IMG/VR virus record: IMGVR_UViG_2921473944_000002
Span: 53,340-117,339 of that record
From: a virus
Taxonomy: Duplodnaviria; Caudoviricetes
Length of the DNA: 64,000 nt
Direction: 5' to 3' (one strand)
The position numbers and the translations under genes were made by a program. Positions 3,003 to 54,200 of the stretch are shown piece by piece; positions within the stretch are counted from its first letter, which is position 1; every line of letters begins with the position of its first letter. Under the pieces are notes generated by a model. It made no database searches. It saw only the letters and a list, made by a program, of their open reading frames with translations, and was not told where the DNA came from.

Positions 3003-3392
3003 ATGGCAAAAGTAAAAACAATGGGACAGGCAATCGTAGTAGTATCTGATGTGAAACTTGAGGATATCAAGAAGATTGAGAAGTATCGTCCAGATGCGCT
3101 GGTTCTTAAAGGCGGCGAGGACAATAAAGAAGAAATCTTCAGAATCGGTACAGGTAGCAGCAGTATCAATACATACGGAGCTTCTTTCTGTGAAGAGACT
3201 CGTGATGATGATAAAAAGGCTGTTATTACTATGACAACAGGTTACAACGGAGATGATATCAAAGGGTTCATCGCAGATGAGCTTGGTGCAGCTCTGACAA
3301 ACCTCGGAAAGCTTGAAAAAACTATCCCAGCAGTCATCGATGCTATCGACAAAGAAAGAGAAGCTATTATGTCTGGCATTACAGTTGCGTAG
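3003..3392 (+). CDS. hypothetical protein upstream of the Ubl gene
   Basis: AAGGAG RBS; ORF followed by terminator. Confidence 0.75.
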   Translation: MAKVKTMGQAIVVVSDVKLEDIKKIEKYRPDALVLKGGEDNKEEIFRIGTGSSSINTYGASFCEETRDDDKKAVITMTTGYNGDDIKGFIADELGAALTNLGKLEKTIPAVIDAIDKEREAIMSGITVA

Positions 3393-3492: not shown

Positions 3493-3720
3493 ATGATTAA
3501 AGTTACAGTAGGAAATAACGTAAAAAGAAACAGCGTAATCGTAGATGAGGCAACAACTCTGAGATCAGTGCTCGAAACAAATGAAATTGATTACACAAGA
3601 GGAACAATGCATCTTGATGGTTCTACACTGCAGCCGGGAGACCTTGATAAGTCATTCTCTGACATGGGAATCAGAGAAAAATGCTTCCTTCTGAACGTAG
3701 TAAAAGCTGATAATGCGTAA
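3493..3720 (+). CDS. ubiquitin-like (beta-grasp) protein
   Basis: 75 aa; beta-beta-alpha pattern (MIKVTV...TLRSVLE...LDG...LDKSFSDMGI...LLNVVK); near E1, E2 and JAB genes; ends in KADNA. Confidence 0.7.
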   Translation: MIKVTVGNNVKRNSVIVDEATTLRSVLETNEIDYTRGTMHLDGSTLQPGDLDKSFSDMGIREKCFLLNVVKADNA

Positions 3721-3774
3721 GTAGTTAAAGCCGACGATTATCGTCGGTATGCTTACCAATGCTCGGCTTCCGGG
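3720..3774. repeat. 55-bp direct repeat copy 2
   Basis: Identical to 2880-2934. Confidence 0.95.
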
Positions 3775-3820
3775 GAGAAATAATCTCCCCGGTATTATAG
3801 GTAATCACGGAGGCGCTACT

Positions 3821-4465
3821 ATGGCAAAGAAAAAGAACAACTTTTATGCGGTAAAGAAAGGAAAGATTCCCGGTTTATATAAAACATGGGATGAGTGTAA
3901 AGCGCAGGTTGATGGCTTTAGTGGCGCTTTATACAAAGGGTTCTCAACAAGGAAAGAGGCTGAGAATTACTTGGATGGCAATATTGAATCAGAAGAAGAT
4001 TCTTTAAACGAGGCGGAGGTTACAATATATGTAGACGGAAGCTATGATGAAAACACCAAGGTGTATGGATATGGTTTTGTGGTTATCAATAAAGACGGAA
4101 CCGTAGAAAAATATTATGGAGCAGGAAATAATCACGAGTCTGCAAAATTAAGAAATGTAGCAGGAGAGATGCTTGCGTCTATGAACGCTGTTAGATATGC
4201 AATTCAACACGGGTATAAGTCTGTGAAAATTTATTATGATTACAGTGGTATAGAAATGTGGGCGACTAAGGAATGGAAAACAAAGAATAATTTAACCACG
4301 AAGTACGCTTGCGCAATGCAAGAATGGATGTCAGAAATTTTAATTTCGTTCCAGAAAGTCGCAGCTCATACAGGCGTCGAATACAATGAAGCCGTAGATC
4401 AGCTTGCAAAATTTGCGGTAAGTAATTTTTGTAAGGAAAACAGTATAGGGAATGGAATGCGTTGA
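3821..4465 (+). CDS. rnhA: ribonuclease HI with N-terminal hybrid-binding (viroplasmin-like) domain
   Basis: FYAVKKG...GLYKTWDECK domain; YVDGS, NVAGE, YYD, KVAAHTG..YNE.VD.LAK motifs. Confidence 0.92.
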   Translation: MAKKKNNFYAVKKGKIPGLYKTWDECKAQVDGFSGALYKGFSTRKEAENYLDGNIESEEDSLNEAEVTIYVDGSYDENTKVYGYGFVVINKDGTVEKYYGAGNNHESAKLRNVAGEMLASMNAVRYAIQHGYKSVKIYYDYSGIEMWATKEWKTKNNLTTKYACAMQEWMSEILISFQKVAAHTGVEYNEAVDQLAKFAVSNFCKENSIGNGMR

Positions 4466-4603
4466 GGCGCTGATAGATGGTTCGATTCCATCCGTTCCAT
4501 CTATCTCATAGATGGAAATGAGATATGAGGAGGCTGTCCGAGATGTAAGAAACAGTCGGCTTGTGGATTGCCGGTACAAATATGCTGAAAATCCATATTA
4601 AAC

Positions 4604-4677
4604 GGATTGTTAGCTCAGGTGGTTAGAGCAACCGGCTCATAACCGGTCGGTCATCCGTTCGAGTCGGATACGATCCA
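4604..4677 (+). tRNA. tRNA with CAT anticodon, most likely tRNA-Ile2 (lysidine); CCA not encoded
   Basis: Full cloverleaf: ggattgt/acgatcc acceptor, accgg-ctcataa-ccggt anticodon arm resembling Firmicutes Ile2, TTCGAGT T-loop. Confidence 0.88.
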
Positions 4678-4704
4678 TTGAATATTTAAAAAGGAGGAAT
4701 TAAA

Positions 4705-6270
4705 ATGTTCAGACCAACCATTAACAATACGCCATTGACATCACAAATGGCAAATAGCTATTTCCAAAATATTTATGGAGATAACTTTAATTCTGATGTA
4801 ACTTTTGTTTCAACATTAAGAGCATTGGTTGCAAATAGAATCAAAGACGATGAAAGAGTAGTACTTAAGTTCAGGAATAGTTCGTTCGATAAAGACACAA
4901 TTGAAGGCGCAAGCGATATAAATGTGTTGAATGCTGTATGTAATCCAATGAACTATGCAAACGGTACAATCATTGTGCATAATTTTAGAGGAAATGCACA
5001 AGGGAATTTGGCATCTTTCCGAGTAATGGAAAGAGGATTCACATCAACATATAGTGGATTTGAGAGAATCGTTAAAGTAACAGAGTTTTTTAGAAAAACT
5101 TTTTACTCGTTATGTTTTGTTAACCCTAACACTAAGCAGGTTGTAATATTCATAGACAACCTAAATATCCGTCGTATGCATTATTTACAGTGCGCCATTT
5201 TTGCATTTATGCCTTGGTATTTTGATCCAAGTGAAGGTGTTACGGCAGATGAAATGGAACTGATTCAATCGTTAAGAGAGACAACGCCTGACAGATATAT
5301 GGCTGCGATTGCAAAGATTGCATCTGCATATGATTTTAGATCCATGCATATCAGAAACGAACTTAAAGGTTTCGAAACAATATACGAGAAAAGACAGTGC
5401 GCAGAACTCGAACAAAATATCGAATCGTATCTCCGCAATATTAGAGACTATAACGATCAAATTGCGAATATTCTTAGACAAAAATACGATGCTGAAATTA
5501 GATTGCTTGGGCTGAAAGATAAAATTGCGGCATCAGAAGGGGAAGATTCAGAGATTATGGAATACTTCCTCTGCAATTCGAAGCTCGATTTGGAGTATGT
5601 TAATAACTCTGACCTGACATTTGTTGTCAAGGATTATCTTATGTATTTCGATGAAGATATGGCAAAGACAATTATTGATAACAATCGAAGCTATATATAT
5701 CGAAATTCCAGAGATTTTGATGCAGACGATGTGAAGAAGCTGATGTATGCGATTTTCATTGACCAGACAATCAGGCTGCGATTCTGCTGTGCGTATACAC
5801 TCCGGTTAGGAGAGCGTGTCAGAGGATTAAGCGATTACGATTATAATGAAACCTATAGTACATATATGCCAAATCCACATATCGACAGATATAGTTGTCT
5901 GGGAAATTACGAGCGAACAATGAACGAAAGACTTAGAGATAATGATGCTATTGGAGCAATAGAATTATGTATTTCTTCGTGTAAGAGTTTGAATTTCAGT
6001 GACAGTACGGTTATGGAAACTTTCATGGCTCGCATGACTGGGGAACATGGATATAGACACAATAAATGCATTGAACTCCCAGATGGAAGTGTTGTAGATA
6101 TGAAAGGTGCTATTGCGTGGATGAAAGAACAGGAAGAAGCTACTGAGCAGAAAGAAGAAACTACAGAAAATGAGCAGGAAGTTCCTGAAAGACCGGAACA
6201 GGCGGCAGATACAGTTGAAGAGCCAATCGAAGATGATATTGATTTGCCAGACGACGAATTTGAATTCTAA
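4705..6270 (+). CDS. coiled-coil protein with C-terminal prokaryotic E2/UBC-like domain
   Basis: PNPHIDRYSCLGN resembles the E2 HP..I....CLG catalytic region; central coiled coil; sits between Ubl and JAB. Confidence 0.6.
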   Translation: MFRPTINNTPLTSQMANSYFQNIYGDNFNSDVTFVSTLRALVANRIKDDERVVLKFRNSSFDKDTIEGASDINVLNAVCNPMNYANGTIIVHNFRGNAQGNLASFRVMERGFTSTYSGFERIVKVTEFFRKTFYSLCFVNPNTKQVVIFIDNLNIRRMHYLQCAIFAFMPWYFDPSEGVTADEMELIQSLRETTPDRYMAAIAKIASAYDFRSMHIRNELKGFETIYEKRQCAELEQNIESYLRNIRDYNDQIANILRQKYDAEIRLLGLKDKIAASEGEDSEIMEYFLCNSKLDLEYVNNSDLTFVVKDYLMYFDEDMAKTIIDNNRSYIYRNSRDFDADDVKKLMYAIFIDQTIRLRFCCAYTLRLGERVRGLSDYDYNETYSTYMPNPHIDRYSCLGNYERTMNERLRDNDAIGAIELCISSCKSLNFSDSTVMETFMARMTGEHGYRHNKCIELPDGSVVDMKGAIAWMKEQEEATEQKEETTENEQEVPERPEQAADTVEEPIEDDIDLPDDEFEF

Positions 6271-6283
6271 GGAGCGTTGAATT

Positions 6284-7237
6284 ATGAGTAAAATGATAAA
6301 ATTACCACAGGATATCCTTGATCAGTATACAAAGGAGTTTTACGAAACTTTAAGATCAGGAAAATTTCCAGATGGGAAAGTTAATTTTTCCAAGACATTA
6401 GGGACTGTTGATAGAAAAGCAACAGTCCTTTTTACAGAGTTGGCATGGCAGAAAATGCAGCTCCTTATCAGGGAATTTAACGATGAGGTAGCATGGCACG
6501 GCATCGCAACGAGATGTGAAGAGCAAGATACATATCTCATTTCTGATATTTTGGTGTATCCACAGGAGGTTACAGGAACTACTGTTACTACAGATCAGGA
6601 AAAATATCAGATGTGGTTAATGGAGCAGGAAGACGATATATTTAATAACATTAGAATGCAGGGTCATTCTCATGTAAATATGGCAACCAGCCCATCCAGT
6701 GTGGACTTGAATCTATATGAAAGTATCCTAGATCAGCTCAGTGGTGATATGTTCTATATCTTTATGATTTGGAATAAGAGCGGGAGCAAAACTGTAAAAA
6801 TTTACGACCTCAGAGAGAATATTCTATTTGAGACTTCTGATGTTACAGTATCCATTAAAGATGTTGGCGATATGTCTGGATTTTTGAAAGAAGCAAAGGA
6901 ATTGGTGCAGAGAAAAACATATACATCTACATATGGCGGAAATGGATATCCGTATTCAGGATATGGTGGATACGGTGGCTATGGAGCCAAGAAAAAAGAT
7001 GAAAAGAAAGATGTGACAAGCCTGGGAAAACACAAACCCCTTACGTCAGAAAATAAAAAAAGCAAAGGACGTAAGGGGAAGCGTAAGAAAGGAAATAAAT
7101 CTACTAAACAGGTGACATTAGATGATTACTTCGGATTATCAACCCAAGACGTCGATGGATATGATGACGCAGATCTTGATGGTCTGAGCGAGTATGAGGA
7201 TGAATATTGGCGACGTAAATATGGTTTCGATTGCTAG
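6284..7237 (+). CDS. JAB/MPN metallopeptidase (deubiquitinase-like)
   Basis: Upstream EVAW glutamate plus HSHVNMATSPSSVD (HxH-x7-S-xx-D) motif. Confidence 0.85.
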   Translation: MSKMIKLPQDILDQYTKEFYETLRSGKFPDGKVNFSKTLGTVDRKATVLFTELAWQKMQLLIREFNDEVAWHGIATRCEEQDTYLISDILVYPQEVTGTTVTTDQEKYQMWLMEQEDDIFNNIRMQGHSHVNMATSPSSVDLNLYESILDQLSGDMFYIFMIWNKSGSKTVKIYDLRENILFETSDVTVSIKDVGDMSGFLKEAKELVQRKTYTSTYGGNGYPYSGYGGYGGYGAKKKDEKKDVTSLGKHKPLTSENKKSKGRKGKRKKGNKSTKQVTLDDYFGLSTQDVDGYDDADLDGLSEYEDEYWRRKYGFDC

Positions 7238-7250
7238 GGTGGTGAGATAA

Positions 7251-7727
7251 ATGACAAGAGATGATTTTCAAAGGGACGTAAGTAGCTGGTCTGACCTGAG
7301 AGCATTCTGTAATGAATATGGGTGTTCGGTATGCGAAGATGTATATTCGCAAGAAGAAATGGATGAAGAGATTAGTTCAAATCTAGTACAAATGGCGAGA
7401 GATGCGAGTGATTGGCATGAACTCTATCATCAGCTTGAAGATATACCAGATGGGTATTATTTTTATCTTAAAAATGAGTATGATGAATTTTCTGGCGCTG
7501 ATGATGATGACTTTGAAAGCTATCGCTCTGATGCTTTTGAGTGGGGCGAATACGAGGGAATCTTCGAGGATGAAGAGGAAGAAGACGATGACTACGAGGA
7601 AGAACTCGAGGAGACAGAGGAGCATTGTGATCCAGATGACGAGTACGAGGTCGGAAATGAAGATATTCCAATTGCAGATCTTTTCATAGTACCGAAAAAC
7701 GGAGATAGAGGAATTTATAATGTATAA
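7251..7727 (+). CDS. highly acidic hypothetical protein
   Basis: D/E-rich ORF within the Ubl gene cluster. Confidence 0.65.
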   Translation: MTRDDFQRDVSSWSDLRAFCNEYGCSVCEDVYSQEEMDEEISSNLVQMARDASDWHELYHQLEDIPDGYYFYLKNEYDEFSGADDDDFESYRSDAFEWGEYEGIFEDEEEEDDDYEEELEETEEHCDPDDEYEVGNEDIPIADLFIVPKNGDRGIYNV

Positions 7728-7742
7728 CACAAGGAGGACAAT

Positions 7743-8414
7743 ATGGATTTAAGTAAATCATATGAATTTTTTCAGCCAGAGAAAGATACAGCAAGAATCC
7801 ACATCGTAGGATGTGGATCTGTTGGCTCAACAATCGCAGAGAATCTTGCAAGATGCGGAGTGACCAAAATGACATTGTGGGATTTCGATAAAGTTGAACC
7901 TCATAATATCGTAAATCAGATGTTTAATCAGAATGATGTTGGTAAATTCAAGGTAGATGCTCTGAAGGATATTTTGACAGATATTAATCCAGAGATCGCA
8001 GAAAAAATTGAGGTTAAGCCAGAAGGATGGCAGGGAAAATTGATGTCTGGATATATCTTCTTATGCGTAGACAGTATCGAACTTAGAAGAGAGATTGTTG
8101 AAAAGCATATGGATAGTCCGTATGTAAAAGCGGTATTTGATTTTAGAACACTGCTTGAAAGCGCACAGCATTATGCAGCTGACTGGTCTGATTCCAAAAT
8201 GAAGGAAGATTTATTGAACTCGATGCAGTTCTCACATGATGAAGCTAAGGATGAGACACCAATATCCGCTTGTGGTGTTACACTTGGTGTAGCGACAACA
8301 GTAAGATTGATTTCAGCTCTCGGTGTGAACAACTACATCAATTTCGTAAAAGGCGATGGAATCAAGAAAATGATTATTATGGACGGGTTCAAATTTGACC
8401 TGTTGGCGTTTTAG
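7743..8414 (+). CDS. ThiF/E1-family adenylyltransferase
   Basis: IVGCGSVGS, DFDKVEPHNIVNQ, K, CVDS, DFR motifs; C-terminal SACG cysteine. Confidence 0.9.
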   Translation: MDLSKSYEFFQPEKDTARIHIVGCGSVGSTIAENLARCGVTKMTLWDFDKVEPHNIVNQMFNQNDVGKFKVDALKDILTDINPEIAEKIEVKPEGWQGKLMSGYIFLCVDSIELRREIVEKHMDSPYVKAVFDFRTLLESAQHYAADWSDSKMKEDLLNSMQFSHDEAKDETPISACGVTLGVATTVRLISALGVNNYINFVKGDGIKKMIIMDGFKFDLLAF

Positions 8415-8416
8415 CC

Positions 8417-8623
8417 ATGAGGGATAAGCAAAGAATCGACCTATTCTGCGAAATTTTATCGACTGCGTGGAAAAGAGTACCAGACATGAGATTCGGTCAG
8501 CTAATGTATAACTTCTTTCACGACGAGTATAACTCTGATCCATTTTATATAGAAGATACAGAACTGATTCGTAGCTTCCAAGCATATGTCGATAAAATCA
8601 GCAAAAATATGCATTCAAGATAA
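8417..8623 (+). CDS. small conserved-type hypothetical protein
   Basis: MRD..RI...W...PD.RFGQL...DPFYIED pattern. Confidence 0.7.
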   Translation: MRDKQRIDLFCEILSTAWKRVPDMRFGQLMYNFFHDEYNSDPFYIEDTELIRSFQAYVDKISKNMHSR

Positions 8624-8625
8624 AT

Positions 8626-8652
8626 AAACCGCCACCAAATGTGGCGGTTTTT
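8626..8652 (+). terminator. intrinsic terminator
   Basis: aaaccgccac/gtggcggttt stem plus T tail. Confidence 0.8.
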
Positions 8653-8655
8653 ATA

Positions 8656-8927
8656 AAGAACGTGCAATGATATTTATCTCTTCGAGATAGCTTCTTACTG
8701 TTAGTGGAAGTAACAACTTGAGCAGTGGGACAACACCACGGAAATAGAAGGCGGGACATGCATCTCCTCCAGAAACATAAATTGGAATAATACATAGAAA
8801 CCGTCATCTTCAGAAATAAAGAACAAACGTATTGATAATCAACGGATTACAGGTCAGCCAAATAAAAGTTGATCAGGAGGAGACTCCGCGGGATACAGTT
8901 ATACACACATTAGATTGCAAGGTTCTT
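8656..8927 (+). ncRNA. retron-like msr/msd cassette 1, directly upstream of the RT
   Basis: Terminal IR aagaac-g-tgcaat / attgca-ag-gttctt; G8669 right after the stem; hairpin tatctc-ttc-gagata; 32-nt core 8690-8721. Confidence 0.8.
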
Positions 8928-8940
8928 GAAAGGAGAAAGT

Positions 8941-10080
8941 ATGTACTATATTACTGTAAAGCAGCCTCCGTCATACCATCAGATGACATTAGAAGAGTTC
9001 CTTTTTGGAGGCAATACGCAAACTAGACTAATAAATGAAAATCTTACAAATACAAGGACATATGAAGTAGAAAATATAAGCGAAAGATTTCTTCAGCTTG
9101 TAAATGTTGATAAACTTATCGAAAAACTTATATGGTTCAATGAAAGAACAGATTATCTGAGAGAAAAGCCTAGACGTGATTGGTATTATGAGTTCCATAT
9201 ACCAAAAAAGAGCGGCGGACTTAGGAAGATTGATGCCCCAGAACCAGAATTAAAAGAGGCGCTCAGTACTTTAAAAACTATATTTGAAGTAGATTTTCAG
9301 GCGCTTTATCACACATCGGCTTTTGCTTACATTCACAAAAGATGCATTATAGACCTGCTGAAAAGACATCAGGCGAATGAAAGCAAGTGGTTTGAAAAAT
9401 TAGATTTATCAAACTTTTTTGGCAGTACAACGATGGAATGGGTATTACAAATGTTTTCAATGGTATTTCCTTTTTCAGAAGTGCTCAAAGACGAAAGAGG
9501 TAGGGCAGAATTCGCAAAGGCTATTGAACTTGGATTTTTGGACGGCGGTTTGCCACAAGGGACGCCGTTATCTCCAATAATCACTAATATTATGATGATT
9601 CCGGTTGATTTCGAGATAGCAAGAACATTAAGAGAGTATAATCATCAGAGGTTTGTATATACAAGATATGCTGATGATTTTCAGATTTCATCTAAATATA
9701 GTTTTAGCTTCACAGAAATACAAAATGTAATTGTGTCCATCTTAAAGAATTTCAAAGCTCCATTTACAATAAACAGTACAAAAACAAGATATGGTTCTTC
9801 GGCAGGGCAGAATTGGAATCTTGGTCTTATGTTGAATAAAGATAATGAAATTACAGTAGGGCATAAGAAAAAAAGACAATTTCAAGCAATGCTTTCTTCG
9901 TATGTTATGGATAGGAAGAATGGAATTGCTTGGGATAAGAGTGACATTCAAACAATGGAAGGATATCGAAACTACTATCGAATGGTTGAACGAGAGAAGA
10001 TTGATGGAATCGTAAAACATTTAAGTGATAAGTTCGGAGTAGATATCGTAAAGGCAATTAAAGAAGACCTTGCGGCTTAG
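8941..10080 (+). CDS. retron-type reverse transcriptase
   Basis: IPKKSGGLRKI, SAFAY, LDLSNFF, LPQGTPLSP, YTRYADD motifs; NLGL in place of VTG; AAGGAG RBS before ATG 8941; no maturase or endonuclease domain. Confidence 0.9.
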   Translation: MYYITVKQPPSYHQMTLEEFLFGGNTQTRLINENLTNTRTYEVENISERFLQLVNVDKLIEKLIWFNERTDYLREKPRRDWYYEFHIPKKSGGLRKIDAPEPELKEALSTLKTIFEVDFQALYHTSAFAYIHKRCIIDLLKRHQANESKWFEKLDLSNFFGSTTMEWVLQMFSMVFPFSEVLKDERGRAEFAKAIELGFLDGGLPQGTPLSPIITNIMMIPVDFEIARTLREYNHQRFVYTRYADDFQISSKYSFSFTEIQNVIVSILKNFKAPFTINSTKTRYGSSAGQNWNLGLMLNKDNEITVGHKKKRQFQAMLSSYVMDRKNGIAWDKSDIQTMEGYRNYYRMVEREKIDGIVKHLSDKFGVDIVKAIKEDLAA

Positions 10081-11844: not shown

Positions 11845-13399
11845 AGATGAGCAAAACACATTGATCCAAAAGTAGAACTTGGCAGTTAGCTCCCATAAAG
11901 TTTGAGGTTGCGATTTTATGGCATAGCAAAGCTAACGTAAGTCCAAAACTTACGAAATCATAAGACTATGAGAATTTTTTAATCAAGCAATTCGTTTTAT
12001 TGTTTTTAGTTTGCGATAAGACTGACCAGAATGGCTAGTGATTGCGGCAACGGCAACTGCTAGTAAACTGATATGGGCAAGTGTGTTTAAGTTTGTAACA
12101 GATGCTTTATTTCTCACCCACATCCGCTCCTGACCAGTATTTTTAAAACGCGAATTATAGCGTTCACATTCTGTGCGGAGTGAATAATTACTTTCAAAAT
12201 ATTTGCTGTCCCTATCAATGGAAAGTCTTAAATCATCAGGAATGGTGAGATATTTCGTACAGCCACGATGCTTTTTACCATTATAGAAATTTTTGTGGTG
12301 GCATGGGCAAACGGTATCTTTACTTGATTTTAGAGGACAACAAAACTTTTGACGGGTACGACCACAATCGGAAAACTTACCATCCTTCCACATGGCAAGC
12401 CCTGCTTCGCAAATGGGATTCCCTTGAGGAAGAAGTTTCGGATTTTTGGAATTACGTTTGTTTAATGGAATGATACATTCTCCATTGTAAAGATCCTTAA
12501 CCTGATTGTAGATATTTTTGACATCGTAACCTTTGTCGGCAAGGAATGTGCAGTCCGTTATTGGTTGAAAGGAATGGGTAGCAGCAAGGATATCTAAAGC
12601 GATGGTAGCATCATGAACTTCCGCGGTTGTGGTCATTTCATAAATAGGAAGACCTGAAATACAGTCTACAAGGACATGATTTTTATAGCCCCAATAGAAT
12701 TCATATTTTTTCTCGTTCGTTTGATTGGATGCAGTGTGGACGCCGAGTTTACAATCCGAATCTGCCCTTGGTTGATTTCCGGGTTTAAACTTATTTGAGA
12801 GAAAAGATTTCGGATTATTCTGTGAAGTATTTGCAGAGACAGGGGTTGAATCTAAGCCAATAAAAGAAGTGTCTACAATACCTTCTTTAGAAAGGAATAA
12901 CACCTGAGTTTTCATGATTTCAGAGAGAACTTTGTTATCGAAATTTTTCAGGAAGCGATCAAAGGTCCAATAAGAAGGAAGTGGACGAGAAATATCAAAG
13001 CCACAAAAATGCGCAATCAGAAGATTATTGTGAAGATAATCGACAAGATCGGAAATCATGGAGAAGCCTTCGCATTTCATGACAATAAAGGAACAAATCA
13101 TAGCGTGATTTGAAAAGCCTTTCCTTCCTGTCTTGGGGAATTCCGGAACAAAGGATAAATCAAGATTCAAAAAAAGAGAATCATAAAACTTTGCAACTGG
13201 TTGTGAAGTGAAAAGACGAATGTCTTTCAAAATTTCTTGACGATAGATAACAATCAGCTCCTTTCGGTGAATTGATTTTGACAACTTAATTATACCATTT
13301 GGAGTTGATTGTTACTATAAATTTGGAGTGATAAAAGAGGTTGCCATGCCTCGCAAACCCGCATAAATACTGAATGTGTGGAGTTTTGCTCATGGCTAT
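11841..13399 (-). mobile_element. insertion sequence (DDE; IS5/IS1182-like)
   Basis: IRs atagagatgagcaaaac (11841-11857) and gttttgctcatggctat (13383-13399); direct repeat gaaatttt at 11833-11840 and 13400-13407. Confidence 0.88.
11983..13284 (-). CDS. DDE transposase
   Basis: GLDST, WGYKNH, LADKGYD, YSLRTECERYNSRFK motifs; start codon uncertain. Confidence 0.9.
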   Translation of the reverse strand: MSKSIHRKELIVIYRQEILKDIRLFTSQPVAKFYDSLFLNLDLSFVPEFPKTGRKGFSNHAMICSFIVMKCEGFSMISDLVDYLHNNLLIAHFCGFDISRPLPSYWTFDRFLKNFDNKVLSEIMKTQVLFLSKEGIVDTSFIGLDSTPVSANTSQNNPKSFLSNKFKPGNQPRADSDCKLGVHTASNQTNEKKYEFYWGYKNHVLVDCISGLPIYEMTTTAEVHDATIALDILAATHSFQPITDCTFLADKGYDVKNIYNQVKDLYNGECIIPLNKRNSKNPKLLPQGNPICEAGLAMWKDGKFSDCGRTRQKFCCPLKSSKDTVCPCHHKNFYNGKKHRGCTKYLTIPDDLRLSIDRDSKYFESNYSLRTECERYNSRFKNTGQERMWVRNKASVTNLNTLAHISLLAVAVAAITSHSGQSYRKLKTIKRIA

Positions 13400-31108: not shown

Positions 31109-31438
31109 GGGGCTGTAAAGGTTTCGACAGGGGTATGAAAGTTATGAGTTCGCTTAGAGTGATGACTTAATCATCAAACTTTAAATACAAACGCAAACAG
31201 ACAGATGTTAGCAGTAGCCTAAGTTGCTACACCAAAATACATTGAGATATTGCTGGTAGATGTTGAGGTTCAAAAACAAGCATATTCAGTATACGGTTCC
31301 CTGTATATGAATACCTGCATTGGTTGAGATAGTTAAGAACAGGGTGGTGGATGAGAAATCAGTACATGATTCCAAAACAGCGTAAAGATTCATAGTGAGT
31401 AGTATTTTTGGACAGGGGTTCGATTCCCCTCAGCTCCA
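31109..31438 (+). ncRNA. ssrA: tmRNA with tag ANRQMLAVA
   Basis: 5' GGGGCTGTAAAGGTTTCGAC; 3' GGGGTTCGATTCCCCTCAGCTCCA; G3-U acceptor pair; tag ORF 31193-31222. Confidence 0.93.
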
Positions 31439-36043: not shown

Positions 36044-37507
36044 ATGGATAATACAATGGCTTTATTATTGTCAGACACATATAAACAGTGCCATGACAGG
36101 ATGTATCCAAAAGGATTGACAAAGCTTGTTTCTTATTGGGTTCCAAGAAGATCCATGCTGAAAAATCAGGATAAGATGGTTTTCTTTGGGCTGCAGGCAT
36201 TCATTAAAGAGTATCTGTTAGGTTATTTTCAGACAAACTTCTTTGATGTTAATGAGGAGGAAGTTGTCAAACAATACACGGATGCAATGAACATTCAAAT
36301 CGGGTCAGGGAATTACGATGTAGATAAGATCGTGCAATTACATCGTCTCGGATATCTTCCTTTGGAAATCAGAGCGCTTCCAGAAGGAACACTTGTTACA
36401 ATGGGAATTCCATGTATCGAAATCACAAACACTACAGAGGAATTTGCGTGGCTCGTGCAGTGGATTGAATGTATCTTGCAGGTAGAATTGTGGAAACCTT
36501 GCTGCCACGCAACAATCGGTTATATGTACAGAAATATTGCGGACTATTGGTATAACAAAACAACAGACGGTCTGGATGGAGCAATGGCTTGTGCCGATTT
36601 CGGCATGAGAGGAATGTCATGCATGGATGAAGCAATAAGATGTTCGGCTTCGTGGCTGTTATCATTTAATAAGACATCTACAATTCCAGCCATTTCATAT
36701 ATTGACAAATATTACAATGCAGATTGTAAACACAACAGAATTGGTATCGGAGCAGTATCAACAGAGCATAGCGTTATGGGTGCAAATTTCTCAATCGATG
36801 GTGATGAAATTACATTTGTAAAAAGATTGCTTACTGAATTATATCCAGACACATCGTTCAGTATGGTATCAGATACATATGATTACTGGAATCTAGTGAA
36901 TAATATCCTGCCTCAGTGCAAAGAAGAGATTATGAACCACAATGGAAAACTCTTAGTTAGACCAGACAGCGGAGATATTGTGGAAATCTCAGTTAAAACA
37001 GTTGAAAGACTGTGGGAAATTTTCGGAGGAACTGAAAATTCCAAAGGGTACAAGGTATTAGACCCTCATATTGGAATTATTTACGGAGATGGATGTACAT
37101 TATCCAATGTCGAAACTATTTGGGAAGAACTTGAAAAGCGCGGATTTGCTGCGAATAACATCGCATATGGAGTTGGGGCATTTTGCTTTACAGCAATCGT
37201 AGAAGATGGAAAGCTTGTGGTCGCTACCAGAGATACATTTGGCATTGCAATGAAAGCAACATACGGTGTTATTAACGGTAAAAAACTGATGATCTATAAA
37301 GACCCGAAGACAGACACAAGCCATTTAAAGAAATCGCATAAAGGTTGTTGCCGAGTATACAAAGAAGATGGACAGCTGAAGTGCCAGGATCAGCTGACGG
37401 AGATGAGCGATGATAGCTTGCTCACAACAGTTTTCAAGGATGGCAAGCTTGCTAAAGAGGAGTCATTTATGGATATTAGAGAAAGGATGTATGGAGTAAA
37501 TGATTAA
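36044..37507 (+). CDS. nicotinamide/nicotinate phosphoribosyltransferase-like protein (Namat-like)
   Basis: SDTYK..H, DFGMRG, STEHSVM, VSDTYD, RPDSGD, YGDG, K.PKTD..KKS.KG motifs. Confidence 0.9.
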   Translation: MDNTMALLLSDTYKQCHDRMYPKGLTKLVSYWVPRRSMLKNQDKMVFFGLQAFIKEYLLGYFQTNFFDVNEEEVVKQYTDAMNIQIGSGNYDVDKIVQLHRLGYLPLEIRALPEGTLVTMGIPCIEITNTTEEFAWLVQWIECILQVELWKPCCHATIGYMYRNIADYWYNKTTDGLDGAMACADFGMRGMSCMDEAIRCSASWLLSFNKTSTIPAISYIDKYYNADCKHNRIGIGAVSTEHSVMGANFSIDGDEITFVKRLLTELYPDTSFSMVSDTYDYWNLVNNILPQCKEEIMNHNGKLLVRPDSGDIVEISVKTVERLWEIFGGTENSKGYKVLDPHIGIIYGDGCTLSNVETIWEELEKRGFAANNIAYGVGAFCFTAIVEDGKLVVATRDTFGIAMKATYGVINGKKLMIYKDPKTDTSHLKKSHKGCCRVYKEDGQLKCQDQLTEMSDDSLLTTVFKDGKLAKEESFMDIRERMYGVND

Positions 37508-37961
37508 AATTATTGATGGTGATTTACTCGCATCCAAAACAGATATTATTGCACACCAGGTTAATTGCAAAGGTGCTTTTAACTCTGGTGTTGCAAGGGC
37601 AATACGGGAATATGATGTTCAGGTTTTCCATGATTATCGTGCGTACTGCTCCGGTAAAACGGCAGATGATCTTATAGGAGATGTGAGATATTTCCAATCA
37701 GATATGGATGACAAAATATACGCAAACCTATTTGCTCAGAAATCTTATGGATATGATGGCAAACAATATACAGATTTGGAAGCGTTGAAAAAGTGCTTTG
37801 AAAATCTGCGGGATTATGCAATGGAGAGAAATATGAGTATTGCAATGCCTTATAAGATTGGAAGCGTTAGAGGAGGCGCAAACTGGGAAGATGTTTATGC
37901 TTTAATTGAAACTACATTTCGAGAAGTAAATGTAGAATTATGGAGGCTTGATAAAGGATGA
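37500..37961 (+). CDS. macro-domain ADP-ribose hydrolase
   Basis: GDLL, HQVNC.G....GVA, MPYKIGS.RGG..W motifs. Confidence 0.88.
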   Translation: MIKIIDGDLLASKTDIIAHQVNCKGAFNSGVARAIREYDVQVFHDYRAYCSGKTADDLIGDVRYFQSDMDDKIYANLFAQKSYGYDGKQYTDLEALKKCFENLRDYAMERNMSIAMPYKIGSVRGGANWEDVYALIETTFREVNVELWRLDKG

Positions 37962-38374
37962 TAAGTGCGTTTAGAGGAAAATATTATTTTTTAAGCAATT
38001 TTTATGCAGCTCCTGTGGTGTGGGACGGTGTTTCTTATAAGAATAATGAAGCTGCGTTTCAATCTGCTAAAGTAGGAAGAGAGTACAGGCAGGAATTTGC
38101 AGAGTTAACCGCTTCAGAAGCTAAGAAATTAGGTAGGAAGGTTCCGCTTAGACCAGACTGGGAGAACGTTAAGGAAAGAATTATGTATGAGATTTGCCTT
38201 GCTAAATTCTCCCAGAATGAAGAACTCAAAGAAAAATTACTTTTAACAGGAGAATGTGCCTTAGAAGAAGGTAATACATGGGGTGACAAAGTATGGGGAA
38301 CGGTGAATGGTGAAGGAGAAAATAAACTTGGAAAGATTCTGATGAAAATACGGGAGGAACTAAGACATGAGTAA
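37958..38374 (+). CDS. NADAR (YbiA-like) protein
   Basis: FLSNFY, E.AFQ..K, AKKLG, KFSQN, D..WG, G.NKLGKILM..RE motifs. Confidence 0.9.
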   Translation: MISAFRGKYYFLSNFYAAPVVWDGVSYKNNEAAFQSAKVGREYRQEFAELTASEAKKLGRKVPLRPDWENVKERIMYEICLAKFSQNEELKEKLLLTGECALEEGNTWGDKVWGTVNGEGENKLGKILMKIREELRHE

Positions 38375-39380
38375 ATTTAATGCAAAGGCAGTAAAAGATG
38401 ACATCGTAAAATGGATTAGAGAATTCTTTGAGCAGAATGGTAAAGGATGTAGTGCTGTAGTCGGGATTTCCGGAGGAAAGGATTCCAGTGTGGTTGCAGC
38501 TTTGTGCGTAGAAGCTCTTGGCAAAGATAAGGTTTTCGGAGTGCTTATGCCGAATGGGGAGCAAGTTGATATTGACACATCGTATTCTCTAGTAAAGCAT
38601 CTCGGGATTGACTATTGTGTGGTTAATATTCATGAAGCAATTAGATCACTGAAGCATGAGATCAAACCGCAGCTCGGAGATCATTGGTCTGTACAGACTT
38701 CTGTAAATCTTCCGGCAAGAATTAGAATGGCTACATTGTATGCAGTATCTCAAACAATCGGTGGGAGAGTCGCCAATACCTGCAATTTATCAGAAGATTG
38801 GGTTGGATATGCTACGAGATATGGAGACGGAGCCGGGGACTTTAGTCCGTTATCAAAGCTCACTGTAACTGAAGTTAAAGCAATCGGACGTGAGCTTGGT
38901 CTTCCAGAAGAATTAGTTGAAAAGGTTCCTACAGATGGTCTGTGTGGTCATACGGACGAAGATAACCTTGGATTTACATATGCAGTTCTGGACAGATACA
39001 TTAGAACCAGTGAAATCGATGATATGCATACAAAAGAAAGAATTGATACCATGCATAAAAAGAATTTGTTCAAGTTGGCTCTTATGCCGTCGTTTGAATA
39101 CACAAATCCTGTAGAAACAGTAGTGTTAGATGGTAAGCAGACTGGATATGGTATCGTAAGTGAGTATATTAAAAAATACTGGGAACATCACTGCACTGAA
39201 GACGTGATTGTATCAATCGAAATATCCAGAGACGGGAAGAATTACGAACGTCTTAATGAAGTCGCAAGCCCATACGATATGTATGATGTAGAATATTTAA
39301 ACGATTGGTGGGAAGGCGAGAAATATATCAGGGTAACAGATATACAAGGCATATCCGATATAAAAATCAAGAAATTATAG
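38367..39380 (+). CDS. nadE: NH3-dependent NAD+ synthetase with C-terminal extension
   Basis: GISGGKDS, N..ARIRM, GYATRYGD, P.DGL...TDE..LG..Y motifs. Confidence 0.9.
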   Translation: MSKFNAKAVKDDIVKWIREFFEQNGKGCSAVVGISGGKDSSVVAALCVEALGKDKVFGVLMPNGEQVDIDTSYSLVKHLGIDYCVVNIHEAIRSLKHEIKPQLGDHWSVQTSVNLPARIRMATLYAVSQTIGGRVANTCNLSEDWVGYATRYGDGAGDFSPLSKLTVTEVKAIGRELGLPEELVEKVPTDGLCGHTDEDNLGFTYAVLDRYIRTSEIDDMHTKERIDTMHKKNLFKLALMPSFEYTNPVETVVLDGKQTGYGIVSEYIKKYWEHHCTEDVIVSIEISRDGKNYERLNEVASPYDMYDVEYLNDWWEGEKYIRVTDIQGISDIKIKKL

Positions 39381-39973: not shown

Positions 39974-40444
39974 GTGATACATATGAAATGTAAGCAATGT
40001 GAAGGAAAAGGAATGATTGGTCTTGGAGTAGGAATCAGAGGGGTAACAAAATGTCCAGTATGTAATGGCAAAGGCGAGGTTCCGGATAATTCTACTACAA
40101 AGGTAGCTGTTATATTCGATAGATGGTTCATCGCGCCAGACGAATTAAATGAATTCTGTCAAAGTATCGGGTACGAAAACCCGGATTACCCAAACGACTT
40201 TGATTTAATGTTTGACCCAAGAGTTGTTCAATTTTGTCAGCAGAATTTGACTAGATTATGGGGAGAACATGTATACAGAGGACGAGAAAGCTGCGATTTC
40301 AGATGTGGTTTTGCAGGAGCTGGCTATATCAGACAAATAGATACATCTAAGACATGGAGATTGTCTTACAATCATGTGGACGCTCCGGTGATTGACTATG
40401 TGCAGGTTAGCACGAATAAATACGGATACCTTTCCGTATTATAA
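39974..40444 (+). CDS. hypothetical protein with DnaJ-type zinc finger
   Basis: CKQCEGKG...CPVCNGKG. Confidence 0.65.
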   Translation: MIHMKCKQCEGKGMIGLGVGIRGVTKCPVCNGKGEVPDNSTTKVAVIFDRWFIAPDELNEFCQSIGYENPDYPNDFDLMFDPRVVQFCQQNLTRLWGEHVYRGRESCDFRCGFAGAGYIRQIDTSKTWRLSYNHVDAPVIDYVQVSTNKYGYLSVL

Positions 40445-40454
40445 GGAGGAATTT

Positions 40455-41654
40455 ATGATTTACTTAGATAACTCAGCAACAACTCCGATTCACCCGGATG
40501 TGCTCAATGCTATGATGCCATACTTAAAGGGTGGATATGGGAATGCGGGGGCTGTTTATAGGATTGGACGAGAATCTGCAAAAGCTATTCAGAAAGCAAG
40601 AGAGCAGGTTGCTCAGTTATTTAATGCTTCCGCCGATCAGATTGTATTTACATCTGGAGGAAGCGAAGGAAACAATATGGTGTTCTCATACGGCATGAGA
40701 TGTATGCTTGAAGAGCTGGGAAAGAAACATGTTGTGATTTCTCAGATTGAACATGATTCAGTGTATGAAGCAGCGACGCACATGTTCAAACAATCTGGGA
40801 ATGTGAATATAAAAGACGACTTTTATACACAGTTTATACATACAAAAAGAGACGGGACGGTCGATGTAGAGCATTTAGAGTCATTATTAGACGAAGATGC
40901 CAACATCGGTCTCGTATCGGTAATGTATGTAAATAATGAAACAGGAGCTGTAAATCCTATAAATCGCATAGGCGAAATGTGTAAGGAAAGAGGAATATTG
41001 TTTCATACAGATTGTGTACAGGCAGCAGGATGCCACGTAATTGATGTTAATACGATTGGTTGCGATTATGCAACCATATCCGGTCATAAGATTTATGCTC
41101 CTAAAGGAATTGGCGCTATATATATAAGAGACAGTAAACTTGCTCGATCACTTGTATACGGTGGTGCTAATCAGGAATTCGGGTTCCGTGGAGGTACTGA
41201 GAATGTTGCAAGTATCGTAGGTCTTGGCAAGTCATGTGATATGATTTGTTCAGATTTCGGCGCGCAGAGAGTGGCGGTGTCTTTATTAAAGCGGCTATTT
41301 TATGAAAATATAGTCTCCGGTCTGAAGTCCAGTGGCTTAGACGAGAGAGTCCATGTTAATGGTGCGGCAGCAGGCGATGTTGGGAAGACATTGAATTTAA
41401 GAATCGAGAATATTGATAGCGAGACTTTGGTTCTAATGTTAGATGCGAAAGGAGTATGCATATCTGCCGGGTCTGCGTGTCATAGTCATGAGTCACAGCC
41501 TAGCAGAGTTTTAACATCTATGGGGCTTTCGGACGATGAAGCGAGAGACTCTGTTAGAATTTCGTTTTCATCTGCAAATACACCGGAAGAAGTCGAGGAA
41601 GCTGCTGCAATATTTTCTTCATGTGTCAAAGCATTAGCCGGATTGCAGAGGTAA
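40455..41654 (+). CDS. iscS: cysteine desulfurase (IscS/NifS)
   Basis: YLDNSATT, FTSGGSE, SGHK, SAGSAC motifs. Confidence 0.93.
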   Translation: MIYLDNSATTPIHPDVLNAMMPYLKGGYGNAGAVYRIGRESAKAIQKAREQVAQLFNASADQIVFTSGGSEGNNMVFSYGMRCMLEELGKKHVVISQIEHDSVYEAATHMFKQSGNVNIKDDFYTQFIHTKRDGTVDVEHLESLLDEDANIGLVSVMYVNNETGAVNPINRIGEMCKERGILFHTDCVQAAGCHVIDVNTIGCDYATISGHKIYAPKGIGAIYIRDSKLARSLVYGGANQEFGFRGGTENVASIVGLGKSCDMICSDFGAQRVAVSLLKRLFYENIVSGLKSSGLDERVHVNGAAAGDVGKTLNLRIENIDSETLVLMLDAKGVCISAGSACHSHESQPSRVLTSMGLSDDEARDSVRISFSSANTPEEVEEAAAIFSSCVKALAGLQR

Positions 41655-51258: not shown

Positions 51259-54200
51259 AGATTATTATGAAATGTTTCACTGTCATACAGAGCTAAGTCT
51301 CTTGGATAGTTGCACAAAATATCAAGAGTATGTGGATTTGGCTGTGAAAAATGGTCAAAAAGTGTTGTCCATATCAGAACATGGTAAGCCAATGAATTGG
51401 ACAGAAAAATGGGCGGCTTGCAAGAAAGCGGGTCTCAGATACATACATTCTGTAGAAATATACCTGACAGAGCAGTTGGAGCCAAAAGTCAGAGATAACT
51501 ATCATACAGTGCTCATGGCTCGAAATATGGCTGGACTATTAGAACTCAATGCTTTGATTACAAAATCATGTGACAAGCAGCATTCGTACTATACGAACAG
51601 AATTTCATTTGATGAATTCCTAAATATTTCAGACAATATCATTTCGACAAGTGCTTGTCTAGCCTCACCGTTGAATAAGTTATCTCCAGACCATCCGCGT
51701 TATATGGAGCTGGCACGGAAATACGACTTCTTAGAAGTTCAAGCACATAATCATCCAGATCAGATTGCTTTTAATGAGCGCCTCCTTGAATTATCGAGAG
51801 AGATTGGAACTCCGTTGATTGCGGGGACAGACACTCACAGTTCTACTCCGTATAAGGCAGAATGCAGGGCTGCGCTAATATCAGCAAAAGGTAAGTCTTA
51901 TGGAGACGAAGATGCATTTGATTTGACATACAAGACATATGATGAGCTTGTAGAGATGTTCAGAGTGCAGGGGGCGTTACCGGAAGATGAGTATATGCAG
52001 GCAATCAGAAATACTCATCAATTATATGACCTCACAGAAGATATTGAGCTAGATACAGCAATTAAATATCCGATCTTATATGGATCACGAGAGGCAGACT
52101 CAGAGAAGTTTACCGAAACAGTATATACAAAATTAGAAGAGAAACTCGAGTCTGGTGTAATACCAAGAAGCCAAGAGCGTGCATTTAGAGATGCGATTGA
52201 AGAGGAGCTTCGTGTATTCAGAAAACTGAAAATGGATGGATTTATGTTATCAATGTCAGAACTGATTTCATGGTGTAAAGAGCAAGGTATGGCAATCGGA
52301 ACTGCTAGAGGTTCTGTCGGTGGCTCGAGAGTTGCTTATGTAACAGATGTCATTGATCTGAATCCAGAAACATGGCACACAGTATTCTCACGATTCTGTA
52401 ATGAAGATAGAGAAGAAATCGGTGATATTGATATAGACTGCGTTGAGTCTGACAGACCAGCAATATTCCAATACATCATTAAGCGATTTGGCGCGGATAA
52501 GACAGCAAGAGTTGCATCTTTTGGAACTTTGCAGGAGAAAGGTGTCATCGATGAGGTTGGTAGATATCTTGCTAAGAAATGGAATAAGGAGAATGGCGTA
52601 GATAATCCGTTTTATGGAAGTCTGTATGACAACGGATCAACACCAAGGGAAAACCCGTGGACGCTTCCTAAGATTGCAAAAATCAAGGAAGAATATTCAG
52701 CTAATCCTGAAAAAACTAAGAGTAAGTATAAGGAGCTGTTTTATTACTTTGATGGATTGCTTGATACGAAGATATCGCAGTCAGTACATCCGGCAGGAAT
52801 GGTAATCAGCCCGATTACTTTGGATGATAACTTCGGTATTTTTGAAAAAGACGGAGAAACCTGCCTGATGCTTGATATGGAGAATATCCATGACTACACA
52901 GGTCTTGCTAAATATGACTTCCTTATTCTGAAAACAGTGCAGGTAATCAGAGACACATGTAGATACCTGAACAGACCATATCCGAAGACACATGAAATTG
53001 ATTGGAATGACCAAGATGTGTGGGCTGATATGATTAAGAATCCATCAGGGATATTCCAGTTTGAGGGTGCATTCGCATTTGAGAGCTTAAAGAAATTTAC
53101 TCCAAAGAGTATTTTTGATATGTCGATCGTTACAGCATGTATCAGACCGTCAGGAGCTTCTTATAGAGATGCATTGCTTGCCAGAAAGCCACATAGTAAC
53201 CCATCTGAGATCATTGATGAACTTCTAAAAGACAACCTCGGCTATCTGATTTATCAAGAGGATACAATCAAGTTCCTGCAACAGATTTGCGGATTGTCTG
53301 GTAGTGAATCTGACAATATCAGACGAGCTATTGGTAGAAAACAGAAAGACAGGCTTGATGCGGCGATGCCATCAATCTTAGAGGGGTACTGTGAAAAGTC
53401 TCCTCAGCCTAGAGAAACTGCTGAAACAGAGGCAAAAGAATTCCTGCAGATTATTGAAGATAGTGCATCATATCAGTTTGGATATAACCATTCAATAGCG
53501 TACTGCTTGCTTGGATATCTGTGTGCTTATTACAGGTATTATCATCCACTTGAATTTATCACATCATTTCTTAATAATGCAGCAAATGAAGATGATATCA
53601 GAAACGGTACGGCATATGCTCATAAAATTGGTATCAAAGTGACAATGCCTAAGTGGGGATTATCCAAGAGTGAGTACTTCTTTGATAGTGAGAAGCGTGT
53701 TATTGCCAAGGGGCTTAGTTCAATTAAATATATGAGTTCCGGTCTCGCAGAAGAGATGTTTGAAATAGCACATCATAAGAAATATAACCACTTTATTGAT
53801 GTCTTATGTGATTTGAGCAATAATTCATCACTCAAAACGAACCAATTGGACATTCTTATTAAAATTGATTTCTTCTCCGAATTTGGAAATCAGAGAGAAT
53901 TATTGAAAATCACAGAGCTTTTCTACGATATGTTCAAAAAAGGAAATGCTAAACAGATCAGAAAAGATAGAGTTGATGGAACACCTCTTGAGCCAATTAT
54001 CAAAAGATATGCTGTCGGAGTTACGAAGAGTGGTGGGGTCGCGAAAAGCTACACATTACTTGATGTAATGTCAATTATGCATGACGCAGAAGATGCCGTA
54101 AAGAATTTACATATGGAAGACCTTAGTATCGTTGTTAAGGTAAGAAACTTTGCAGATGTCATGGGATATGTAGGTTATATCTCTGGCAGAGAGGAAGATA

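Follow-up and report, generated by a model that had tools for sequence, protein, structure and literature searches.

A candidate ubiquitin-like protein-ligation system encoded beside a retron-type reverse transcriptase in a lineage of gut Clostridia phages

INTRODUCTION

The characterized prokaryotic ubiquitin-like (Ubl) conjugation systems, i.e. Cap2/Cap3 of the anti-phage system based on signaling by cyclic oligonucleotides (CBASS), Bil and Bub, function in bacterial anti-phage defense (PMC11601596). Here, a 64,000-nt stretch of phage DNA (hereafter the window; positions 53,340 to 117,339 of the IMG/VR record IMGVR_UViG_2921473944_000002) was found to carry on the virus side a complete set of such parts, namely a Ubl, a small E1, an E2-like protein and a JAB peptidase, in one gene run next to a retron-type reverse transcriptase (RT), and this set is stably kept in a large lineage of phages of gut Clostridia. 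Among the described systems, Bil is composed of the Ubl BilA, the E2 BilB, the JAB peptidase BilC and the E1 BilD, corresponding to class 6d of Iyer, Burroughs and Aravind 2006 (PMC1779556), and BilD is a large E1 of the IAD-AAD-CYS architecture (PMC11601596). In CBASS, the E1 domain of Cap2 adenylates the C-terminal Ala of Enterobacter cloacae CdnD (...GRFA), and the JAB peptidase Cap3 cleaves cGAS-GFP fusions (10.1101/2022.03.31.486616). In Bub, the JAB cuts a Ubl-E2 fusion, the BubAB precursor, and thereby matures the Ubl (PMC11601596).

A full-text literature search turned up no account of a Ubl/E1/E2/JAB set encoded by a phage or of one linked to an RT, and we found the family of the phage system in no paper or curated library. 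Based on the folds, motifs, conservation, gene fusions and synteny observed in silico, from which we infer the chemical steps, the target and the biological role, we estimate at roughly 60% the probability that the run constitutes a self-contained, phage-encoded ubiquitin-like protein-ligation system.

RESULTS AND DISCUSSION

The Ubl module is phage-borne and retained in near-constant gene order

The host record is a 117,339-bp IMG/VR provirus of 99% completeness, of which the window is the second half, and the window genes include a phage DnaB-type helicase, primase, DNA polymerase, ligase and NrdD; thus, the replicon is a phage and the tagging machinery is phage-borne. The run comprises p129 (3003–3392), a conserved 129-aa partner protein; the 75-aa β-grasp Ubl with the C-terminus ...VVKADNA (3493–3720); the E2-like E2L (4705–6270), a 521-aa two-domain protein with the candidate catalytic Cys398; a 317-aa JAB/JAMM metallopeptidase with a complete JAMM motif (6284–7237); the E1 (7743–8414), a 223-aa stand-alone single-domain ThiF-type adenylating enzyme; and the retron-type RT (8926–10080). 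All genes from p129 to RT lie on the plus strand and are tightly packed, with intergenic gaps of 2–15 nt from E2L to p68, a small gene at the end of the run. An initial annotation of the window had called the Ubl, E2-like, JAB and E1 genes as one co-oriented, phage-encoded run upstream of an RT locus; all four are real, and orientation, coordinates, phage origin and position relative to RT held, whereas p129, an RNase H1 gene, a tRNA-Met gene, an acidic-protein gene, p68 and the near-constancy of the RT link had been overlooked.

Open reading frames were called in 8 viral, 38 metagenome-assembled genome (MAG) and 11 further viral loci and matched to the window proteins, with the locus counts referring to related loci, not independent events, over an E2L identity span of 95% to 27%. 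A near-constant gene order of p129, Ubl, E2L, JAB, (acidic), E1 and RT was displayed by ~50 loci with E2L identity down to 27%. Where enough DNA was available past Ubl (50 loci), E2L and E1 were each found in 48, JAB in 47, and RT in 44, while a separate p129 lay immediately upstream of Ubl in 44 and was fused to it in 4 more; E2L, where present, always lay between Ubl and JAB. RT followed at no more than 2 kb after E1 in 40 of the 42 loci having at least 3.5 kb beyond E1.

When relatives were collected by DNA polymerase, E2L was present in five of five records of at least 90% completeness, and in none of five partial records, one being 87% complete, of a clade with 65–67%-identical DNA polymerase. 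The DNA polymerase of this clade (L082–L085 and L090) matches over 4,071 nt versus ~3,160 nt in closer relatives, which suggests a ~300-aa insertion, perhaps an intein. According to their titles, most MAGs belong to Oscillospiraceae, Acutalibacteraceae, Ruminococcus, Lachnospiraceae and further Clostridia sampled from the guts of humans, ruminants and termites, with a few loci from Bacteroidota bins, for which binning errors are possible. Among GenBank phages, one unannotated relative was found, at 27% identity. A distant single-protein scan gave no match.

This distribution bears on the reading that the same chemistry is anti-phage defense cargo of a prophage, tagging structural proteins of superinfecting phages and forming a small defense island with the retron. 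The fixed place of the module among early and replication genes, its presence in all near-complete relatives by DNA polymerase (5/5) and a gene order retained to 27% identity point to a lineage core function more than to patchy cargo, and a dedicated partner, p129, fused to Ubl suggests a self-encoded target. We therefore regard the defense role as rather unlikely, although anti-phage immunity is what all characterized prokaryotic E1/E2/JAB systems provide (PMC11601596), retron-type RTs are also defense genes (PADLOC matches), the record is classed as a provirus with an integrase-like gene in the window, and some loci sit on 244–359 kb contigs resembling pieces of bacterial chromosomes.

The Ubl is predicted to adopt a β-grasp fold and ends in alanine

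AlphaFold2 prediction of the Ubl from a 35-sequence alignment yielded a model with a predicted local distance difference test score (pLDDT) of 92 and a predicted template modeling (TM) score of 0.80, in which β-β-α-β-β elements are followed by a flexible tail with pLDDT ~57 at the last residues. Foldseek against PDB retrieved an Arabidopsis Ubl domain, ubiquitin, SUMO and NEDD8 at TM 0.6–0.7, and the top matches by Foldseek and VIA-align were all Ubl or ubiquitin, including SUMO and the bacterial Ubl BilA. The phage protein thus has the predicted ~75-residue β-grasp fold with flexible C-terminal tail of a Ubl, as the initial annotation had supposed for 3493–3720, and no match was found in Pfam, PHROGs, NCBIfam, PADLOC or PDB sequences. 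Its family numbers 1,325 clusters at 90% identity (E ≤ 0.01), and Ubl is 75–80% identical in typical relatives versus ~50% or less for its neighbors (E2L ~50%).

The C-terminus reads exactly ...NVVKADNA in 99 of the 120 closest homologs, with N74 and A75 at least 90% conserved and the last Gly being residue 59, and so neither a Gly nor a Gly-Gly end is present as an activated residue. Longer close homologs carry unrelated additions after the Ala, i.e. A, AA, K, VA, TC, HI, HQ, CK, RK or tails of 7–22 residues, and the Ubls of distant loci are likewise tailed (KTDNAA, KMDNALAA, KMDNAR). Since variable tails, and whole-protein fusions described below, start exactly after ...DNA, comparison of the homologs provides good evidence for Ala75 as the working C-terminus of Ubl, which upholds the earlier proposal of a non-glycine end. 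As far as known, a β-grasp modifier with a terminal Ala would be new, while terminal Ala would not be new for this enzyme class, given Cap2 on CdnD.

Two unusual Ubl genes were also observed. In a 119-kb relative (L005:6152–6410), the Ubl frame stops at a TGA right after ...VVKAD, and the frame past the stop reads LAGNAK, so that the usual N-A end lies behind a stop codon. Another locus (L032:3564–4181) encodes, 3 kb upstream of its regular module, a second, divergent 205-aa Ubl-domain protein with a Cys-rich C-terminal part.

p129, in other loci fused in frame to Ubl, is its probable substrate

By restricting the search to longer Ubl homologs, we obtained 102 clusters, of which ~100 were in-frame Ubl-p129 fusions of 202–210 residues with the junction ...KADNA|A-x-[IV]-x-[IV]-x-G, precise at DNA|A. 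The free p129 starts with M-A-K-[IV]-x-[IV]-A-G and has a near-invariant Ala2, and thus the fusions join Ubl Ala75 to what would be the Met-trimmed N-terminus of p129. In the fusion loci L040 and L048–L050, no separate upstream p129 was found, while E2L, JAB, E1 and RT were all retained. Across 22 p129 sequences, S15, K27, G59, F62, G95 and E105 are invariant. No match of p129 was found in Pfam, PHROG, PDB or Atlas or by hhalign, and hhalign against E2L, JAB, E1 and the acidic protein detected no relation.

Because the gene fusions occur in frame at the fixed Ubl end, good comparative evidence argues for p129 as a functional partner of Ubl, and p129 is probably its substrate as well; such natural fusions serve as a built-in handle that names the partner. 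As a separate observation, one 137-kb viral contig (L051:8269–10681) carries, all before E2L, a free p129, two Ubl-p129 fusions in tandem and a free Ubl that ends in DNAAA.

JAB and E1 carry conserved catalytic residues

The JAB protein displays the complete JAMM motif E68...H128-S-H130-x7-S138-x2-D141, with E68, H128, S129, H130, S138 and D141 at least 95% conserved in 49 sequences. Over this motif it can be aligned with RPN11 (E 0.6), and it matches the PADLOC JAB models weakly (E 0.016). The catalytic part, which harbors this JAMM/MPN+ motif, spans about residues 1–200. The remaining ~120 residues (window 6900–7237) form a low-complexity tail that is first Gly/Tyr-rich, then Lys-rich, and ends in an acidic/aromatic block, its sequence being variable across loci while its style is retained.

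The E1 matched Pfam ThiF (PF00899) at 2.7e-24 over residues 16–206, with 86.1 bits versus a cut-off of 28.1, and the PADLOC E1-E2 (Cap2) models at 4.1e-20, and its matches among PDB sequences include UBA5 (5e-12), MoeB (1.5e-9), Cap2 (2.6e-6), MccB and PaaA. Across 44 sequences, G23-x-G25-x-x-G28, D47, D49, K70, D110 and Cys177, the latter in the motif T-P-x-S-A-C, are at least 95% conserved. The protein thus combines an adenylation domain above cut-off with the GxGxxG motif and Mg-binding Asp of the ThiF/MoeB/E1 superfamily, and the earlier calls of a JAB peptidase and a ThiF/E1 enzyme were both confirmed by these conserved residues.

E2L is a probable E2-like enzyme

The E2L family comprises 1,709 cluster representatives at 50% identity (E ≤ 1e-3), none informatively named, and no match of E2L was found in Pfam, PHROGs, NCBIfam, PADLOC or PDB sequences. 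AlphaFold2, with 147 sequences of 35–89% identity, produced a model of pLDDT 92.4 that consists of an α/β N-domain (residues 1–220), a 55-residue helix (223–277), an α/β C-domain (283–470) and, past a terminal helix, an acidic disordered tail. The C-domain runs in the order of helix, two strands, three-helix insert, two strands, loop and three helices, which in the model resembles a UBC topology with an insert. Its loop follows Y-x-P-N-P-H-I-D-x-Y-x-C-L-G, which in the window is PNPHIDRYSCLG. In the 147 sequences, F2, D31, H159, W171, F351, H392 and C398 are invariant, with P389, N390 (≥90%) and G400 nearly so, and in the proteins of 50 loci, with identities as low as 27%, H392, C398 and G400 are retained, C398 in at least 95%. 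The candidate catalytic Cys therefore follows a PN loop (P389-N390-x7-C398), and its distance from the Asn is that of HPN-x7-C in UBE2D2.

Comparisons by structure gave weak matches for the C-domain, and those outside coiled coils were almost all RWD-type. The VIA-align lists were filled with coiled-coil matches to helix 223–277, so that any E2 chains of lower Z would have been masked, and Foldseek of the whole model against PDB retrieved nothing at E ≤ 0.001. In BFVD, only one uncharacterized homolog from an uncultured phage was matched. In the comparison with bacterial E2s by sequence, Pfam Prok-E2_B was found in 0 of 401 sampled Bacillota genomes, and a Cap2-model search retrieved for the most part plain ThiF/MoeB genes, with no more than two E2-E1 fusions; when the E2L C-domain was compared by hhalign with these two single fusion sequences, no signal emerged, at low power. 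Taken together, E2L is a probable, not a proven, E2-like enzyme. The initial call of an E2-like 521-aa protein thus stands for the conserved His and Cys in E2-type spacing, and structure prediction of 4705–6270 yielded a long helix and a probable UBC-like C-domain as well, whereas the RWD/UBC fold matches are weak and a family match is lacking.

A competing reading does without an E2. E1 would activate Ubl, which would be transferred directly to a target or be chemically modified at its C-terminus in the way of MccB or PaaA, JAB would still mature Ubl, and E2L would serve as a scaffold or adaptor, be itself the target, or be a Cys/His enzyme of unrelated function. MccB and PaaA, both among the PDB matches of the phage E1, are E1-like enzymes that act on non-Gly C-termini without an E2, and neither sequence nor profile methods link E2L to E2 families, to which the weak structural matches may be added. 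Such E2-less ligation is nonetheless unlikely in our judgment, as Cys398 and His392 are at least 95% conserved on a loop placed, like that of UBC folds, after a four-stranded sheet and before three helices, as the non-coiled-coil C-domain matches are RWD-type with few exceptions, and as E2L is kept in 48/50 loci and always between Ubl and JAB.

The E2L tail was observed to vary by clade. In the clade of the window (window 6200–6270; L002, L003, L028 and L041), it has acidic ends closed by Phe, i.e. ...DDIDLPDDEFEF, ...EEDELF, ...EDDLF and ...HDPLF, which resemble the C-terminal tip of bacterial single-stranded DNA-binding protein, where replication and repair proteins dock; such ends are missing from the other clades.

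The phage system departs from Bil, CBASS, Bub and PRTRC

The phage run is similar to Bil/class 6d in having Ubl, E2, JAB and E1 parts and no E3, but its E1 is a 223-aa single adenylation domain that lacks the Bil E1 architecture, its E2-like protein has ~500 aa and includes a long helix and an additional N-domain, its Ubl ends in Ala and not Gly, and it is phage-borne, RT-linked and accompanied by p129 and Ubl-p129 fusions; at the sequence level, no membership in Bil was found. With CBASS, it shares the size of its E1, which equals that of the Cap2 E1 domain (residues 374–600; 10.1101/2022.03.31.486616), and the adenylation of a terminal Ala by Cap2 and the cutting of linear fusions by Cap3 are likenesses as well. 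It differs from type II CBASS in that the substrate is a true β-grasp Ubl and that E1 and E2L are separate genes, and no CD-NTase or effector family was found in the gene run by Pfam, PADLOC and NCBIfam. Bub (6E/DUF6527), in its type I, is likewise comparable through a Ubl made as a fusion precursor, in which a JAB domain exposes the working C-terminus; however, Bub is featured by a Ubl fused to E2, cleavage after Gly, oxyester catalysis and the DUF6527 serine protease BubE, whereas the fusion partner here is p129 and both E1 and E2L keep a conserved Cys. Neither DUF6527 (Pfam) nor Ubl-E2 or E2-E1 fusions were found in the phage run. As to PRTRC, E1 scored 32.5 bits against TIGR03736, below the cut-off of 144.75. 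The phage system therefore has the defining architecture of none of the four.

Eukaryotic ubiquitin is made as fusions to ribosomal proteins or as polyubiquitin with an extra C-terminal residue, and these precursors are matured by deubiquitinases. The phage Ubl genes are alike in their variable C-terminal extras or in-frame fusion to a small protein and in having several precursors per genome (L051), but they belong to an unrelated lineage, end in Asn-Ala versus Gly-Gly, and have a phage protein as the partner.

ThiS/MoaD pathways similarly pair a β-grasp protein with a small single-domain ThiF-family enzyme, but here both the Gly-Gly terminus and a sulfur-acceptor synthase are absent, with no ThiG, MoaE or rhodanese found in the gene run (Pfam, NCBIfam). 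That Ubl is a sulfur carrier, which the initial annotation had offered as an alternative with an IscS, and for which E1 would make a Ubl thiocarboxylate with sulfur from a phage cysteine-desulfurase-like enzyme for thio-modification of tRNA, DNA or a cofactor, is highly improbable, since the class-V aminotransferase resembling cysteine desulfurase (Aminotran_5; window 40392–41654) is 32 kb away, the Ubl is without a Gly-Gly end, and ThiS/MoaD pathways feature neither a JAB nor an E2-like protein with a Cys nor fusions of Ubl to proteins, even though the best NCBIfam match of E1 is to a ThiS adenylyltransferase model, at 85 bits against a cut-off of 159, and ThiS occurs in 10% of members of one Atlas neighbor cluster.

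A proposed ligation pathway and the points against it

In the ligation system that we propose, Ubl would be produced ready with ...Asp-Asn-Ala at its end, extended by a short tail, or as a head-to-tail fusion with p129. The JAB/JAMM peptidase would cut right after Ala75, thereby freeing Ubl and p129, and would later reverse the conjugates. The small ThiF-type E1 would bind the flexible Ubl tail and adenylate the Ala75 carboxylate, upon which Ubl would probably form a thioester on E1 Cys177 and then be transferred to Cys398 in the C-terminal domain of E2L. Since no E3 is present, the N-terminal domain and the long helix of E2L may supply the binding of partner or target. Ubl would finally be ligated to a target amine, for which p129 is the best candidate, through either its Met-trimmed N-terminal Ala or its invariant Lys27; with the N-terminal Ala as acceptor, the gene fusions would mimic the conjugate exactly. 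Other phage or host proteins are alternative targets.

Several observations weigh against this scheme. The fusions of Ubl and p129 prove a functional link, not a conjugate, and we know of no β-grasp Ubl with a terminal Ala in use. For E1, Asn58, at least 95% conserved, replaces the canonical Arg of N-R-Q/SNLxRQ in the UBA5 alignment, and an N-terminal Arg finger (RYxRQ-type) is not evident before GxGxxG; the ATP handling of this E1 may therefore differ from the canonical one. The C-terminal half of E1 alone retrieved only chance antibody matches among PDB sequences, and Cys177, at about the same offset as the catalytic Cys548 of Cap2, can be equated with it by position only. Concerning the wider linkage, two loci (L021 and L038) are without RT, and a terminator-like hairpin (8626–8650) separates the Ubl run from the RT locus in the window, both of which argue against an obligatory coupling of the Ubl module to RT.

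If the proposed system is true, the rules of substrate recognition by E1 and JAB enzymes would be widened and a compact, orthogonal protein-ligation toolkit would become available. One would also have to ask whether Ubl tagging serves the phages' own biology or is directed at the immunity of the host.

The RT next to the Ubl module

The RT matched Pfam RVT_1 (1.5e-19), PADLOC RT_II-A (2.4e-47) and the NCBIfam retron St85 RT model (1.8e-49, below cut-off). As this retron-type RT is the near-constant neighbor of the Ubl module, we suggest that the two serve one process, in early infection or in the prophage state, and the RT linkage together with an RNase H1 gene inside the run in the clade of the window points to a shared process as well. 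More speculatively, and unlikely, the Ubl machinery and RT could be two arms of one phage system of a new kind, in which E1 and E2L would ligate the Ala-ended Ubl to the N-terminus or Lys27 of p129 and this peptide-type conjugate, mimicked by the natural gene fusions, would switch or assemble an RT/non-coding RNA (ncRNA) module, resembling multicopy single-stranded DNA, during infection. If so, a virus-encoded, non-glycine and possibly N-terminal Ubl conjugation would act as a retron effector or regulator. RT itself was considered as a second substrate of E1 and rejected, for its C-terminus (IK-x-DL plus 1–3 variable residues) is not fixed.

The hairpin is GC-rich and followed by a T-run. Lying directly after the p68 stop codon, it reads AAACCGCCAC-CAAAT-GTGGCGGTTT and then TTTTAT, and may close the Ubl run in the manner of a terminator or else form the first stem of a retron-type ncRNA. 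A sigma-70 promoter scan scored no better than shuffles. The RT/ncRNA region also contains a DDE transposase gene in opposite orientation (window 11983–13284, minus strand).

Accessory genes and other features of the window

The intergenic gap between Ubl and E2L takes up cargo, which in the clade of the window is an RNase H1 gene and a tRNA-Met. RNase H1 (3749–4465, plus strand) has a hybrid-binding domain and an RNase H domain (Pfam PF01693 at 1e-20 and PF00075 at 5.6e-14; PHROG 531 at 1.2e-27), and its relatives begin with MAKKKNN at the Met of codon 25, so that the true start is probably at 3821. It was found in 5 of the 50 loci, in L020 downstream of RT. The tRNA-Met (CAT) gene (4604–4677, plus strand) was identified by ARAGORN within the gene run, with blastn matches to phage tRNA genes.

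Two further genes of the run are optional. The 158-aa acidic protein (7251–7727, plus strand) is a mobile accessory, found in 18/50 loci and at times elsewhere in the locus, and the 68-aa p68 (8417–8623, plus strand) in 4/50, with no family match for either in Pfam, PADLOC, PHROGs or NCBIfam. Elsewhere in the window, the phage encodes a transfer-messenger RNA (31109–31438) with the tag ANRQMLAVA, and the NAD salvage genes NAMPT and NAD synthase (36044–39380).

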